Shown here one piece after another: positions 15,001 to 21,000 of a DNA stretch of 64,000 bases. The DNA is taken from IMG/VR virus record IMGVR_UViG_2718218360_000002. The stretch is one strand, 5' to 3'. Made by a program: the position numbers. This DNA comes from a virus (taxonomy: Duplodnaviria > Heunggongvirae > Uroviricota > Caudoviricetes). Every line of letters starts with the position of its first letter. The first letter of the stretch is position 1.

Positions 15001-18000
15001 TATGGCCAGCAGGGTGAACCTGCCACCACCACCTTCCGGATTGCCGCACCGGCAGCACCGTCGCGGATTGAGCTGACGCCGGGCTATTTTCAGATAACCG
15101 CCACGCCGCATCTTGCCGTTTATGACCCGACGGTACAGTTTGAGTTCTGGTTCTCGGAAAAGCGGATTGCGGATATCAGGCAGGTTGAAACCGCAGCCCG
15201 CTATCTTGGCTCGGCGCTGTACTGGATAGCTGCCAGTATCAATATCAAACCGGGCCATGATTATTATTTTTATATCCGCAGTGTGAATACTGTTGGCAAA
15301 TCGGCATTCGTGGAGGCTGTCGGTCGGGCGAGCGATGATGCGGAAGGTTACCTGGATTTTTTCAAAGGAGAAATCGGGAAAACACATCTGGCCCAGGAGC
15401 TGTGGACGCAGATTGATAACGGTCAGCTTGCGCCGGACCTGGCTGAAATCAGGACGTCCATTACGAATGTCAGCAATGAAATCACGCAGACCGTCAATAA
15501 AAAACTGGAAAATCAGAGTGCGGCAATCCAGCAGATACAGAAAGTTCAGGTTGATACAAATAATAACCTGAACAGCATGTGGGCCGTGAAACTGCAGCAG
15601 ATGCAGGACGGACGCCTTTATATTGCGGGTATCGGTGCCGGTATTGAGAATACGCCAGCAGGAATGCAGAGTCAGGTGCTGCTGGCGGCAGACAGGATTG
15701 CGATGATTAATCCTGCGAATGGCAACACAAAGCCGATGTTTGTTGGTCAGGGCGATCAGATATTTATGAATGAAGTGTTCCTGAAATATCTGACGGCTCC
15801 CACCATTACCAGCGGCGGTAATCCTCCGGCATTTTCCCTGACACCGGACGGGCGGCTGACGGCGAAAAATGCCGATATCAGCGGTAACGTGAATGCGAAC
15901 TCCGGGACGCTCAACAACGTCACGATTAACGAGAACTGTCGGGTTCTGGGAAAATTGTCCGCGAACCAGATTGAAGGCGATCTCGTTAAAACAGTGGGCA
16001 AAGCTTTCCCCCGGGACTCCCGTGCACCGGAGCGGTGGCCATCAGGAACCATTACCGTCAGGGTTTATGACGATCAGCCGTTTGACCGGCAGATTGTTAT
16101 TCCGGCGGTGGCATTCAGCGGCGCTAAACATGAGAAAGAGCATACTGATATTTACTCCTCATGCCGTCTGATAGTGCGGAAAAACGGTGCTGAAATTTAT
16201 AACCGTACCGCGCTGGATAATACGCTGATTTACAGTGGTGTTATTGATATGCCTGCCGGTCACGGTCACATGACACTGGAGTTTTCGGTGTCAGCATGGC
16301 TGGTAAATAACTGGTATCCCACAGCAAGTATCAGCGATTTGCTGGTTGTGGTGATGAAGAAAGCCACTGCAGGCATCACGATTAGCTGAATTTTATAACC
16401 CAGATACGGGCGCCAGAAATGGCGCCTTTTTTATTGCAGAAAAGCGAGAGGTAATTATGCGTAAATTATGTGCTGTTATTTTGTCCGCAGTAGTCTGGCA
16501 GGTCGCCGCTGCTACGCCAGCGAGTGCAGCAGAACATCAGTCCACGCTGAGCGCGGGGTATCTCCATGCCTCGACGAACGTTCCCGGTAGTGATGATCTG
16601 AACGGGATTAACGTGAAATACCGTTATGAGTTTATGGACGCGCTGGGGCTGATTACGTCCTTCAGTTATGCCAATGCTGAGGATGAGCAAAAAACGCGCT
16701 ACAGCGATACCCGCTGGCATGAAGATTCCGTGCGTAACCGCTGGTTCAGCGTGATGGCGGGGCCGTCTGTACGCGTGAATGAATGGTTCAGCGCGTATGC
16801 GATGGCGGGTGTGGCTTACAGCCGTGTGTCGACTTTCTACGGGGATTATCTCCGCGTAACTGACAACAAGGGGAAAACGCACGATGTGCTGACCGGAAGT
16901 GATGACGGTCGCCACAGCAACACGTCTCTGGCGTGGGGGGCTGGCGTGCAGTTTAACCCGACCGAATCCGTGACCATTGACCTTGCTTATGAAGGTTCCG
17001 GTAGTGGCGACTGGCGATCGGATGCATTTATTGTTGGTATCGGATACCGTTTCTGACAACAGACGCCGATTTATCTTCTGTAAATATTGTTATGATACGC
17101 AGGTTCATCCACCTTATGGGGTGAACTGCGTTTGAGGAAACGTAAAGTTACACTGTCCTGAAGCCCGTGGCGTCACTGCTGCGGGCTTTTTTTATTGGTG
17201 GAAAAGTATGACAGTAAAAATTTCTGGCGTGCTTAAAGATGGCACAGGAAAACCAGTACAGAACTGCACCATTGTGCTGAAGGCCAGACGAACCAGCAGC
17301 ACGGTGGTGGTGAACACGGTGGCCTCTGAAAATCCGGATGAAGCCGGACGTTACAGCATGGATGTTGAGTACGGTCAGTACAGCGTCATTCTGTTGGTGG
17401 AGGGATTTCCTCCGTCACATGCCGGGACCATCACCGTGTATGAAGATTCTCAACCCGGTACGCTGAATGATTTTCTCGGTGCCATGTCGGAGGATGACGT
17501 CCGGCCGGAGGCACTGCGCCGTTTTGAACTGATGGTGGAAGAGGTGGCGCGTCACGCTGAGGAGGCGAAGAAGAATGCCGGAGAGGCGGAGACGTCAGCG
17601 AGGAATGCCGGCATATCAGCCAGTCAGGCAGAAGAGAGCGCTGCAAATGCTGACACTTCAGCAGGGGATGCATCGGAGTCAGCCCGGCAGGCGGCAGAAA
17701 GTGCAGCCGCTGCAAAGCAGTCAGAGGAGGCGTCCTCGTCCTCGGCCTCTGCGGCCGCTCAAAAAGCCAGTGAGTCATTACAAAGTGCAACAGATGCTGA
17801 GTTGTCAAAAAAGACGGCAGAAAGTGCAGCCGGTAATGCAGCCAGGGATGCAACGACCGCAGCAGAAAAAGCCCGGGAGTCAGCAGAAAGCGCACAGTCA
17901 GCGGAACAAAGCAGGATAGCGGCGGAAGAAGCCGTAAACCGAATCCCCACCGTGGTGGGGCCTCCCGGGCCAAAGGGGGAACCGGGGCCCGCGGGTCCTC

Positions 18001-21000
18001 AGGGGCCGAAGGGAGATAAAGGAGAGCGTGGAGACACCGGCCCGGCAGGGGCAACCGGCGAACGGGGACCGGCAGGTGATGCTGGTCCGGCAGGCCCGCA
18101 GGGGCCGAAAGGTGACAGGGGAGAGCGGGGAGAGACCGGTCTGACGGGAAATGCAGGTCCACAGGGTCCAAAGGGAGACACCGGGGCAGCAGGCCCGGCA
18201 GGCCCACAGGGACCGAAAGGAGAAACAGGTGCGGCTGGCCCGGTGGGGGCAACCGGACCTCAGGGACCGAAGGGCGACCCGGGGGAGACACAAATCCGTT
18301 TTCGTCTGGGGCCGGCGAGCATTATTGAGACAAACAGCCATGGCTGGTTCCCGGGTACAGATGGTGCGCTCATCACCGGACTGACCTTTCTTGCCCCCAA
18401 AGATACCACACGGGTTCAGGGTTTTTTTCAGCATTTGCAGGTCAGGTTTGGTGACGGGCCGTGGCAGGATGTTAAGGGGCTTGATGAAGTGGGCAGTGAT
18501 ACAGGCAGAACAGGAGAATGACATGAACATACTAAAAAAACTTATGCAGCGTCTGTGCGGGCACGGAAAGCATGATGACCGTGAAGACGGGGAGTTACTT
18601 ACAGCACAACTGCGTCTGGGGCCGGCAGACATCCTGGAGTCCGATGAGAATGGTATTATTCCGGAGCAGGACAGGGTAATCACGCAGGTGGTGATACTGG
18701 ATGCGGATAAAAAGCAGATACAGTGCGTGGTAAGACCGCTGCAAATCCTGCGTGCTGACGGGACGTGGGAAAATATTGGCGGGATGAAGTAACCCGACAG
18801 CTTCACAAAACCGGAGTCCGGCTCCGGTTTTTGTTGTCATGTAAGGCAGATGTTTGTTAAAGCTATTTAAGTCTGGAGTTTAAATTAAAATAGGGAGTTT
18901 TATAATGCCGTTAAATTCGGAGATTAGATCAAGCTCATTTTTAATGGATTGAATGTCCTTCGAGCTCAAGTAGCATCTAGCGGTCGAGGGGAGTTTACAT
19001 TAGGTAATGAGACTGTCAGCATTGTATTTAATGAAACCGATGGGCGTTTTCTATCCAGCGGCAGTAGTGGGGGATTGCTTACTGAGTTATTCCTTTATGG
19101 GTTTAATAACGGCCCTGAAGCTCTTCGCGATAGGATGCTCAGTATGCTTTCGGACTCAGGTGAAGCACAATCGCAAGAGAGTATTCAGGACAAAATATCT
19201 CAATGTAAGTTTCCTGTTAGTTCAGGAAATTTCCAGTGCCCGCCAGAGTCTATTCAGTGTCCAATTACACTAGAGAGACCCGAAGAAGGAGTGTTTGTCA
19301 AAAATTCAGATAGTTCGGCAGTATGCTGCTTATTTGATTTTGATGCATTTTCTCGTTTAGCTAGTGAAGGCTCATATCATCCACTGACCCGAGAACCAAT
19401 AACGGCATCAATGATTATAAGTCCTGATAAATGTGTTTATGATCCTATCAAGGGAAACTTCATTATAAAAGATAGTTAAAATATTTTTCTCTGAGAGAGT
19501 ATTGGCTGTCAGTAATTTGTAAAAAAACGCCGCAGACATCCAGAATATAAGAAGGTGTCTGTGGTTGGCAGGTTTCAGATGACTTGAAGGCGTCTTTATG
19601 TAAATGCATTTTTCTGTGGAGATGTTGTCGGAAAATATTGGATTAAAAACATAATCCAAGTCAAATAGTAAGTTTGTTTTTTTTGAGATTAGGTGTGTGT
19701 ATTTAGAATTTTTATGATGTGTTTATTTTGTGGGGTATTTTAGAAAAAATATATTAATCCTTATTAATAATAGCTGCCATCCATTTCAGCTATTATTTTA
19801 AAATAAACAAGTTAAAGCTTAGACTCTTGTTTCTTGGATTATATCAAAGATATCAACATGATTTGATGGATTATGATGTGGTAAGCCATTGCTTTCGATA
19901 TCGATTACCACATCCTCTGGATTTGGATGCCGCTGTCCAACAGGGATACCTTCTTCCATTGCGCGTATATCAGCACCTGTGGCATGTTCAATATCTGCTT
20001 TATTGGGGAAAATAGCTCCTTCTCTTGCGTGCCACCATATACGAGGATAGTCAGTGAATCTAGCTACTTCAAACTCGGCCTTGTTTAAATCGGCAGCCCC
20101 CAGTGTCGCACCAGCCCACCATAAAATAGTGTCTGGCTTTAATCCAGGGGTATTATACTGTATGGCATGCCCTGCTGCTTGCCCAACCATTGCACCGATA
20201 TGAGGACTTAACATTGGATCTGTACTAGCAAATCTGGATACTGCAAATCCCCCTAAAGCACCAAGCGCATTTGCGGCAGCATTGGTAAGAACGGCATATT
20301 TAGTATTAGGGTTATCTAAATCCCACTTGAAATGTGCGCCAAACTCCAGCCCTAGAGTTGCCTGTAATGGAGATGCACCATATTTAAAATCTGCTTCTCC
20401 CGGTCTGATAACCCACTCCTCCGTGTAATTTGCTTTCGGCCCATCAGGAGTAAGTGGTGTTTCTCCAACAAGCTTCCATCCATTTTCAGTTTTGACTATA
20501 GGAAGTTCTACACCATGATTACGAACCACTTGAGCTGTTAATCCAAACCATGGTATTGGGTCTTTTGGCTCGGTGGTTACCGTCGAAGTAGTGGCTGATG
20601 TTCCAGTCGATGCAATAGTCGACACTGCAGTGGTTGATATATTACTGTTGCTTAATGCATTTTTTAACGGGCCAGGAAGGTCTTTAAAATTAAAACCTAT
20701 TTCATCATGCAGAGGGAATATCTGTAAAAAATAATTACCTGATGTAGGATGAATATCTGGTTTTACAATGTTTAGCTGGACACCATATTTACCAGAGATG
20801 CCTGAAACGGAACTAGGTATCTCTAATGCCATTTGGGTAACATTGAATAAACCAAACATATCCAATGTTTTTTTTCCTATGGATCCTTCTTCAAGGTGAG
20901 GAGCTATATATTCGTCTAGCCCTGAGAGCAGACCTTTATCTTTTATCAAGCTCAGTAGAGCTGTTGTTTCACCGCATTCCGGTGCATGTTGCTGTATATC

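Follow-up and report, generated by a model that had tools for sequence, protein, structure and literature searches.

The region described herein encodes, with a probability of about 0.9, the whole of an EPclA-type side tail fibre from a lambdoid prophage of E. coli O157:H7, together with the small partner gene that usually accompanies it. The window (the whole stretch of 64,000 nucleotides that was analysed, from the virus record IMGVR_UViG_2718218360_000002) carries the fibre gene, stf, on the plus strand at 17208..18521, where an intact open reading frame (ORF) specifies an EPclA-type collagen-like protein of 437 aa. The product is identical to WP_024748516.1 of O157:H7 genomes, and matches the tail fibre families PHROG 366 and PHROG 3279. 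The adjoining nleA, nleG and espM1 genes suggest that the host prophage is Sp9/CP-933P-like.

The architecture itself is already known: its biochemistry dates from 2012, it has names in Pfam, PHROG and NCBI, and most sequenced E. coli genomes contain it. Fibres of this kind are found on lambdoid and Stx phages, the vehicles by which Shiga toxin and T3SS effector genes pass from strain to strain. The selection analysis of the small downstream gene reported below slightly sharpens an existing question, that of the role of the partner gene.

Domain organization of the fibre

Four domains follow one another in Stf, in the order PF08400, coiled coil, PF01391 collagen and PF06820. The first, PfN (aa 1-133; 17208..17606, plus strand), comprises the collar or attachment part and the start of the helix, and its match to PF08400 (E=6.1e-69) spans the whole profile length. 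As a preliminary description of this DNA had stated, the N-terminus is lambda-like: it is 75% identical over 160 aa to lambda orf-401, the N-terminal part of lambda Stf, and the comparison with orf-401 gave no similarity past aa 160. Residues 1-93 also match the collar chain of Ur-lambda Stf (9E7M; E=2.1e-50), whose docking on gpV/gpM has been described (PMC12617516).

PfN is followed by PCoil (aa 134-250; 17607..17957, plus strand), a predicted Ala/Ser/Glu-rich trimeric alpha-helical coiled coil of 117 aa, of which the EPclA counterpart has about 116 aa. The low-complexity tract noticed earlier is borne out by the composition of residues 101-250 (30% Ala, 15% Glu and 15% Ser), and for EPclA a coiled coil was demonstrated by circular dichroism (CD) and SEC-MALLS (PMC3368898).

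The third domain, Col (aa 251-361; 17958..18290, plus strand), is a run of 37 uninterrupted Gly-X-Y triplets (111 aa) with proline in 18 of the 37 X positions. It matches Pfam Collagen PF01391 (E=2.7e-18), has strong matches to collagen chains, and is GC-rich (71.6%, against 51.7% in the whole window). The block must be real, because 37 in-phase consecutive glycines cannot come from chance. The PF01391 type asks for 20 or more triplets in which each third residue is glycine and for proline enrichment, and both are found. The unbroken repeat of about 110 residues reported previously was therefore correctly recognized, except that its end lies at 18290 rather than 18288. A Pfam search of Stf gave no match to the Pf2 repeat (PF03406); a single unbroken (Gly-X-Y)n domain without Pf2 is what characterizes EPclA.

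The C-terminal segment beyond the repeat, previously put at about 70 aa, measures 76 aa. It contains PfC (aa 363-426; 18294..18485, plus strand), the globular trimerisation domain that forms the distal knob; the match to PF06820 (E=2.6e-38) covers positions 1-64 of the 64 in the profile, and trimerisation of this domain has been reported (PMC3368898). The layout of Stf is exactly that of EPclA, complete, and has been known since 2012 (Ghosh et al. 2012). A domain search and structure prediction of Stf and the small downstream ORF had been proposed in the preliminary description. The former returned PF08400, PF01391 and PF06820 in Stf and PF06820 in the small ORF; the latter, which covered AF2 monomers only (the trimer and dumbbell data discussed herein come from rEPclA; PMC3368898), gave a model of moderate confidence for the small ORF (mean pLDDT 73.7) and an unusable one for the PfC segment of Stf (pLDDT 51). 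The authors of the phi24B study likewise had no confident AlphaFold model for the PfC domain.

The preliminary description took the protein for a short fibre lacking a receptor-binding domain, which implies a truncated or degenerate remnant that has lost both this domain and its chaperone. Several features lend themselves to such a reading, namely the length of 437 aa compared with about 2.3 kb for the two lambda stf ORFs together, the lack of Pf2 repeats or a gp37-like distal domain, the lack of a Tfa homologue next downstream, and the frameshifted tail genes of the surrounding prophage. However, the viable phage 434 has a fibre of equal length and layout, the 437-aa layout is the most frequent class in the viral loci, the ORF is unbroken and shows purifying selection, and the protein ends in a recognised, folded trimerisation domain. 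Moreover, each O157 genome has 8 to 9 prophages for which EPclA is listed as the normal architecture (PMC3368898). A remnant is thus highly improbable, and in practice is refuted by the phage 434 locus and the EPclA biochemistry: these homologues show that PfN-PCoil-Col-PfC, at 437 aa, is the normal full-length architecture, and the most common one (PMC3368898; phage 434 at 93% identity).

Flanking signals and antisense reading frames

A terminator-like hairpin lies between lom and stf at 17160..17189 (plus strand), with a 13-pair stem followed by the T-run TTTTTATT. A second element at 18807..18838 (plus strand; RNA fold of -21.4 kcal/mol, z=-4.4, then a U-run) appears to be an intrinsic terminator that closes the unit of stf and the small ORF before the effector (moron) genes, the next of which are an NleG-like gene and then nleA. 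The simple terminator scan that gave the lom-stf hairpin did not include this second element, which came from RNA folding. Phage 434 has annotated terminators at the places homologous to both.

Two long ORFs run antisense to the locus, one of 286 aa at 17431..18291 and the other of 302 aa at 17898..18806 (both on the minus strand). Neither matched anything in a Pfam search. They are regarded as spurious, because antisense frames of a GC-rich triplet repeat are poor in stop codons; the collagen segment has 0 stop codons in two of its three antisense frames. The earlier explanation of these ORFs as a by-product of the repeat is therefore upheld.

The nearness of the T3SS effector morons could also be taken to mean that the collagen-like protein benefits the lysogen rather than the phage, acting as an adhesin or virulence factor in the way of streptococcal Scl proteins. 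Collagen-like proteins of bacteria are able to bind host matrix, which PMC3368898 brings up as a possibility but does not support. Yet Stf has neither a signal peptide nor an anchor, its N-terminal tail-collar domain is homologous to the resolved lambda Stf collar, its gene sits within the late tail operon between lom and the terminator, and in Sp5 the related EPclB was located at the tail end by immuno-electron microscopy (immuno-EM). An adhesin can hardly be the correct reading, and a side tail fibre is preferred. Whether this particular copy is used is a separate matter. The J gene is frameshifted within the window, and in the annotation of an identical strain the genes for the tape measure and the major capsid protein are given as frameshifted too. 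The prophage copy looks defective, so the fibre may never be assembled from the window locus alone.

Occurrence of the locus

At least part of the query region is matched by 4834 of 5426 complete E. coli genomes, 692 of which match at least 80% of it, and DNA that is 100% identical is present in many O157:H7 genomes. The same layout was found in about 60 of the 68 viral loci parsed. In the IMG/VR loci, a Stf of 437 aa whose Gly-X-Y run spans 111 aa is the modal form; where the collagen length differs, it does so by a multiple of 3 aa, and the 1-nt TGA-to-ATG junction between stf and the small ORF recurs in nearly all (~60/68). The PfC family is tiny (91 clusters in an exhaustive representative search, many of them fragments or chimeras), so no deep alignment could be built. 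A single-protein scan of genome contigs gave matches only in E. albertii and in one probable contaminant.

The downstream gene encoding a PfC paralogue

The gene that follows stf (18523..18792, plus strand) starts in the +1 frame, at an ATG separated by 1 nt from the stf TGA, and encodes 89 aa. It had been described as an ORF of 88 aa at 18526..18792 resembling the C-terminus of Stf; the resemblance is confirmed (34% identity to Stf aa 364-425, E=1e-9, with PF06820 in both), but the ORF starts one codon earlier. Its product consists of a leader of 26 aa, which varies, and a PfC domain under tight constraint, has PF06820 as its only Pfam match (E=4.6e-36), and matches PHROG 576 at positions 1-89 of 89 (E=2e-59). 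We class it as a stand-alone Phage_fiber_C protein (PHROG 576; Sp5 ORF68 type), located directly 3' of a fibre gene that ends in PfC. A Shine-Dalgarno (SD) motif, AGGAG, lies within the last stf codons (18512..18516, plus strand), 6 nt before the ATG, and phage 434 has an annotated ribosome-binding site at the matching place. Judged from the sequence, the gene belongs to the stf transcription unit and occupies the slot that tfa fills in lambda. The earlier remark that a lambda-type tfa is missing holds, as a comparison with lambda orf-194 (Tfa) gave no similarity (E=3.9).

Two candidate features of this gene were rejected. The motif "LCGCG" might be mistaken for a lipoprotein signal, but an h-region of insufficient length and too polar a character argues against one, as does residue 14, where C, H, Y and R all occur. 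Programmed frameshifting or readthrough from stf into the +1 frame was dismissed since the ORF has its own SD and ATG; in addition, Mondal et al. found no frameshift signal.

AF2 modelled aa 30-85 of the small protein as a beta domain. Neither sequence nor profile searches of the PDB with PfC gave a match. Selection on the gene is strong: the pN/pS ratio is 0.04 for its PfC domain (aa 27-89) and 0.27 for the PfC of Stf, and its segregating sites comprise 17 synonymous and 5 nonsynonymous ones (binomial P=4e-7 against 75% nonsynonymous). This pattern argues that the gene probably encodes a working protein and is not a silent cassette.

What the protein does is variously described: annotations of the gene and its homologues are three in number and contradictory, and the literature has proposed a chaperone, an alternate tip and a recombination reservoir. 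In the GenBank annotation of phage 434, it is a dedicated fibre assembly chaperone that replaces Tfa. The position of the ORF directly downstream of stf, its spacing, which resembles that of translational coupling, and its own SD site fit that description, as does the strong purifying selection. The gene of a fibre chaperone usually lies directly 3' of that of the fibre, which counts in the same direction. Nonetheless, the 89-aa protein is not needed for recombinant EPclA and Col-PfC to fold and trimerise in E. coli, and PfC alone renucleates the triple helix (PMC3368898). In addition, ORF68, the homologue in Sp5, is one of the late genes that this phage can do without (PMC5155283), the ORF has no similarity to Tfa, and a homologue of the very domain to be folded would be an unusual design for a chaperone. 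A chaperone is hence an unlikely, though not far-fetched, role.

An alternate fibre tip, or a recombination reservoir from which the PfC of Stf could be swapped, was suggested by Mondal et al. (2016), and the homologue in phage AU5Stx1 is annotated "alternate tail fiber tip". Homology of the ORF to the PfC of Stf accords with this suggestion, and so does the natural chimera P0121, in which the N-terminus of the small ORF is fused to the C-terminus of a Stf PfC. On the contrary, a silent cassette needs no SD, no ATG, no conserved 1-nt junction and no near-absolute amino acid conservation; 34% identity leaves little DNA homology for recombination; none of the 79 loci examined (0/79) had a Stf with a PfC of the small-ORF type; and the frameshift signal sought by Mondal et al. 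was not found. A reservoir appears quite unlikely, somewhat more so than a chaperone.

We incline weakly toward a non-essential accessory that acts on or with the fibre tip. In a more specific and tentative form, itself as doubtful as the chaperone, the protein would be associated with the virion as a cap or adaptor, stacked on the PfC trimer of Stf, and would set or mask receptor specificity. If true, collagen-shafted fibres would use, in place of the Tfa system, a tip partner that is itself a paralogue of the tip.

A model of the fibre

Three Stf chains would form one fibre. Their PfN domains (about aa 1-94) would build the collar by which the fibre docks where tail tube and tip meet, an arrangement resolved for Ur-lambda Stf, and residues of about 100-250 would continue as a trimeric coiled coil rich in Ala and Ser. 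The 111-aa Gly-X-Y block would form a collagen triple helix and, with a rise of about 0.29 nm per residue, add about 32 nm to the shaft, so the fibre would not be physically stubby despite its few residues. The 64-aa PfC would trimerise, nucleate the triple helix from its C-terminal end and make the distal knob. By analogy with the side fibres of Ur-lambda, the knob might contact a host surface structure and speed adsorption; PfC occupies the distal position in which one would look for a binding domain, and its receptor-binding role is putative. The 89-aa paralogue, from the same transcription unit, would be accessory, on or with the tip.

Parts of this model have already been shown on near-identical proteins. 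By AUC, SEC-MALLS, CD and EM, rEPclA is a stable dumbbell-shaped homotrimer with collagen triple-helical and coiled-coil conformations, and PfC of EPclA trimerises (PMC3368898).

Comparison with known systems

Ur-lambda Stf (P03764; cryo-EM 9E7M/9MGH) is encoded after lom, at the same position as stf of the window, and shares with it the N-terminal collar and the start of the Ala/Ser-rich coiled coil. Further on, lambda Stf has a long coiled coil, a hinge, a gp37-like distal domain and an OmpC-binding tip, with Tfa downstream, whereas the fibre of the window has a collagen shaft, a PfC tip and a PfC paralogue in the Tfa slot. It lacks the Pf2 repeats and the gp37-like distal domain or receptor-binding tip of the lambda type.

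EPclB, the lateral fibre of short-tailed Stx phages (933W L0121, Sp5 ORF67/ECs1228 and phi24B gp61), likewise has a collagen shaft, a PfC terminus (96% identical to aa 273-437 of the window's Stf) and a downstream 89-aa PfC gene. It differs in its length of about 645 aa, in its two Col blocks separated by a Pf2 repeat and in its docking on a podovirus tail. EPclB is essential for Sp5. In phi24B, cryo-EM shows the lateral fibres directed toward the capsid, and the authors considered the EPclB C-terminal domain probably not to be the BamA binder.

The distal region of the phage Mu tail fibre S/S' (PDB 8JU3) was among the nearest systems considered, without detectable similarity at the sequence level; given moderate model confidence, this likeness is a possible lead and not a family assignment. 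Stf also matched Bacillus BclA (1WCK). In BclA and in streptococcal Scl2, as would be the case in Stf, an unhydroxylated Gly-X-Y triple helix is nucleated by an adjacent globular trimer, but these are cell-surface or exosporium proteins with unrelated globular domains and Stf is a virion fibre.

A close counterpart is phage 434, whose side tail fibre (UMO75288.1; OL657226.1) is 93.4% identical to Stf over all 437 aa. Phage 434 and the window have in common the order J, Ail/Lom, stf, 89-aa PfC gene (CPT_434_24 in 434), terminator and T3SS-effector morons; 434 is viable with an intact J, whereas J of the window prophage is frameshifted. EPclA itself (Ghosh et al. 2012) has the same dimensions as Stf (437 aa, PfN, PCoil of about 116 aa, 111-aa Col and PfC) and the same site, after J and lom in O157:H7 lambdoid prophages. 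The EPclA rows in Table 2 of PMC3368898 give 437 aa with a 111-aa collagen domain and include Sp9 and CP-933P among the carriers. There is no difference of substance between the two, and the window copy is one of several per O157 genome that are mutually more than 90% identical.

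Architecture and length of the side tail fibre

The side tail fibre gene, stf, extends over 17208..18521 (+) and codes for a protein of 437 aa. The domain search proposed in a preliminary description recognized an N-domain (PfN; PF08400, phage_tail_N) at Stf aa 1-133 (Pfam E=6.1e-69), a collagen region (PF01391), and a C-terminal domain (PfC; PF06820, Phage_fiber_C) at aa 363-426 (E=2.6e-38); a CarboxypepD_reg match within PfN was sub-threshold. This type of fibre is already known as EPclA, and is covered by the same three families; PHROG 366 covers the fibre and PHROG 576 the small ORF that follows it. 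The features first read from the sequence (a lambda-like N-terminus, an Ala/Ser/Glu-rich tract, about 110 residues of unbroken Gly-X-Y repeats, and a C-terminal segment of about 70 aa) were all recovered. Over 160 aa, the N-terminus shares 75% identity with lambda orf-401, the N-terminal part of Stf; Ala makes up 30% of residues 101-250, and Glu and Ser 15% each; and 37 Gly-X-Y triplets run without interruption through residues 251-361 (nt 17958-18290; GC 71.6%), with Pro in 18 of the 37 X positions, leaving 76 residues to the C-terminus. The GC-rich triplet repeat had also been suspected of creating spurious antisense ORFs, rightly so: two of the three antisense frames of the collagen segment are free of stop codons, which accounts for the ORFs of 286 and 302 aa, and neither ORF matched a Pfam family. 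They are of the same composition-driven type as orf206b, a 206-aa antisense ORF annotated within the Ala/Ser-rich part of lambda stf (locus L084, 4748-5368, -).

The fibre had been regarded as short, with a part missing. Comparison with homologues contradicts this view, since the same 437-aa layout occurs in a viable phage and is the most frequent form. The classical phage 434 (OL657226.1) has its own 437-aa side tail fibre, 93.4% identical to Stf over the full length, and shares with the window the gene order J, Ail/Lom, stf, 89-aa gene, terminator, and type III secretion (T3SS)-effector morons. Eighty IMG/VR loci containing the small ORF downstream of stf were fetched, in which 68 copies of that ORF could be parsed. 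The commonest fibre there (28 loci) is 437 aa long with a 111-aa Gly-X-Y run, and the remaining fibres vary in collagen length only, in steps of 3 aa (60, 63, 78, 81, 105, 108, and 114). These findings agree with Tables 2 and 3 of Ghosh et al. (2012; PMC3368898). The distal end of Stf is a folded trimeric knob, PfC. The rise per residue in a collagen helix is ~0.29 nm, and the 111 collagen residues therefore give a calculated ~32 nm of shaft, to which the coiled coil adds ~17 nm by established helix parameters; Stf is compact in sequence, not in physical length.

A second PfC protein in the tfa slot

The ORF that follows stf, first described as 88 aa at 18526..18792, starts instead at 18523 (18523..18792, +) and codes for 89 aa. 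Its reported resemblance to the Stf C-terminus stood (34% identity to Stf aa 364-425, E=1e-9), and the product is itself a PF06820 protein (E=4.6e-36). In ~60 of the 68 parsed copies, the TGA of the collagen-bearing fibre gene is followed by one base and then the ATG of the 89-aa ORF. Because an AGGAG site lies 6 nt upstream of this ATG, within the last stf codons, and a strong hairpin with a U-run (-21.4 kcal/mol, z=-4.4) lies 3' of the small ORF, the two genes form one terminated unit, located between lom and the effector morons. A lambda-type Tfa is missing, as supposed: lambda orf-194 (Tfa) and the 89-aa protein are not similar.

Public annotations of the small gene conflict. It is labelled 'tail fiber assembly chaperone' in phage 434 and 'alternate tail fiber tip' in phage AU5Stx1, and Sp5 ORF68 was described as a non-essential 'intragenomic reservoir' (Mondal et al. 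2016, PMC5155283). A role as fibre chaperone is possible. So is that of a recombination reservoir or cassette, and the two PfC segments are able to recombine, as demonstrated by a natural chimera (P0121) in which the small-ORF N-terminus continues into the C-terminus of Stf PfC. However, selection on the small ORF speaks against its being nothing but a silent cassette. In its PfC part (aa 27-89), 53 distinct alleles differ at 17 synonymous sites and at only 5 nonsynonymous ones (pN/pS 0.04; binomial P=4e-7, indicative only because the alleles are non-independent, as prophage copies recombine). The 26-aa leader is much freer (pN/pS 0.34), and the PfC of Stf also varies more (pN/pS 0.27); in the latter, a few positions are substituted repeatedly. 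This substitution pattern says that the small ORF encodes a working protein. The 89-aa paralogue might tentatively be viewed as a dispensable accessory protein that works at the fibre tip, with the chaperone and reservoir roles as rivals.

Variation and relatives of PfC

Across 79 loci, the Stf PfC (18294-18485) varies at a handful of positions (AS/GN, H/N, G/D, A/D, T/A, R/Q, F/L/M, and Q/R), which recombine into mosaics, and the remainder is invariant. Exposed loops on the knob would fit these positions. The small-ORF family is tiny: a search of 5.8 billion clustered proteins gave 175 matches, and one of 1.84 billion gave 91 representative clusters. Its named matches all belong to E. coli, E. 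albertii, or Citrobacter rodentium. GTDB species representatives with the small ORF are restricted to E. albertii, besides a 725-bp contig of Xanthomonas pisi DSM 18956 (Contig_138; L086). The latter has a small PfC gene with 92% identity to that of E. coli, and most likely reflects contamination of the assembly by an E. coli phage.

P0121 belongs to a set of PfC fusions (with P0143, P0148, P0150, P0152, and P0155). Unrelated N-termini (HTH repressor-like, portal-like, and transposase-like) are fused to Stf PfC at nearly one point, which hints at a breakpoint within PfC that recurs through recombination or assembly. A distant 565-aa protein, P0141, has four tandem ~70-aa repeats followed by a collagen-like block. 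Since its repeats end in a sequence (VVVLxADExxxxGxxGILxVRxADGTWxEIPAxKG) that resembles PfC in its C-terminal half, PF06820 may capture only part of a more widespread fibre repeat with the PfC core motif.

Prophage identity and state

Many E. coli O157:H7 chromosomes contain the 1.8-kb stretch around stf at 100% identity. Of 5426 complete E. coli genomes, 4834 match some or all of it and 692 match 80% or more, at up to 18 places per genome. In strain FRIK2455, the annotated order is phage tail genes, gpJ (frameshifted), Ail/Lom, WP_024748516.1 ('prophage tail fiber N-terminal domain-containing protein'), WP_001023474.1 ('phage tail fiber C-terminal domain-containing protein'), a frameshifted DUF1076/NleG-like gene, and nleA, with IS elements, nleG, and espM1 further on. 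From this neighbourhood, we infer a Sp9/CP-933P-type lambdoid prophage. In the window, a frameshifted NleG-family (PF06416/DUF1076) T3SS effector gene (18905-19479, +) directly follows the fibre unit, and nleA (19819-21144, -) is intact.

Two overlapping ORFs (12917..14092 and 13969..16389, spanning 12917-16389, +) stand in place of a single central tail fibre gene J, which is labelled frameshifted in the 100%-identical FRIK2455 record; a copy with this J is probably unable to form an infectious tail by itself. Frameshifts are also annotated in FRIK2455 for the major capsid and tape measure genes, at coordinates corresponding to window 1-1197 and 6973-10210 (+). Given the split J and these putative further lesions, the intact stf of this copy may contribute only via recombination or complementation with other prophages.

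A junction zone between two prophages occupies 21805-32300, and contains an integrase remnant interrupted by a stop codon, the IS66 family element ISEc8, IS256, IS630, and IS3 fragments, nleG, espM1, and a further DUF1076 gene. At ~32.3 kb, a second lambdoid prophage begins with integrase, excisionase, exonuclease, and dicB.

Assembly and docking in known fibres

Work on near-identical proteins has demonstrated the trimeric state, the shaft of coiled coil and collagen, and trimerisation by PfC. As a recombinant protein, EPclA forms a stable trimer, its Gly-X-Y block folds into a true collagen triple helix (Tm 42 °C) that is renucleated by PfC, a trimerisation module, and the molecule is a dumbbell in which a hinged stalk links two globular ends (PMC3368898). 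Collar docking has been shown for a homologous N-domain. In the cryo-EM structure of Ur-lambda (9E7M), the chain named 'Tail fiber protein' matches the N-terminal 93 residues of Stf (E=2.1e-50); there, the collar at the gpV/gpM junction is built from twelve such N-domains and gives rise to four trimeric side fibres (PMC12617516). By analogy, mounting of Stf on the tail via such a collar is well supported. Receptor binding by the PfC knob was inferred by Ghosh et al. (PMC3368898). A phi24B cryo-EM preprint argued that, in the related EPclB, the BamA binder is probably not the C-terminal domain, and noted that BamA is not recognised by the related lambda_2B8 fibres. Like the side fibres of Ur-lambda, the PfC knob of Stf would engage a host surface component and speed adsorption.
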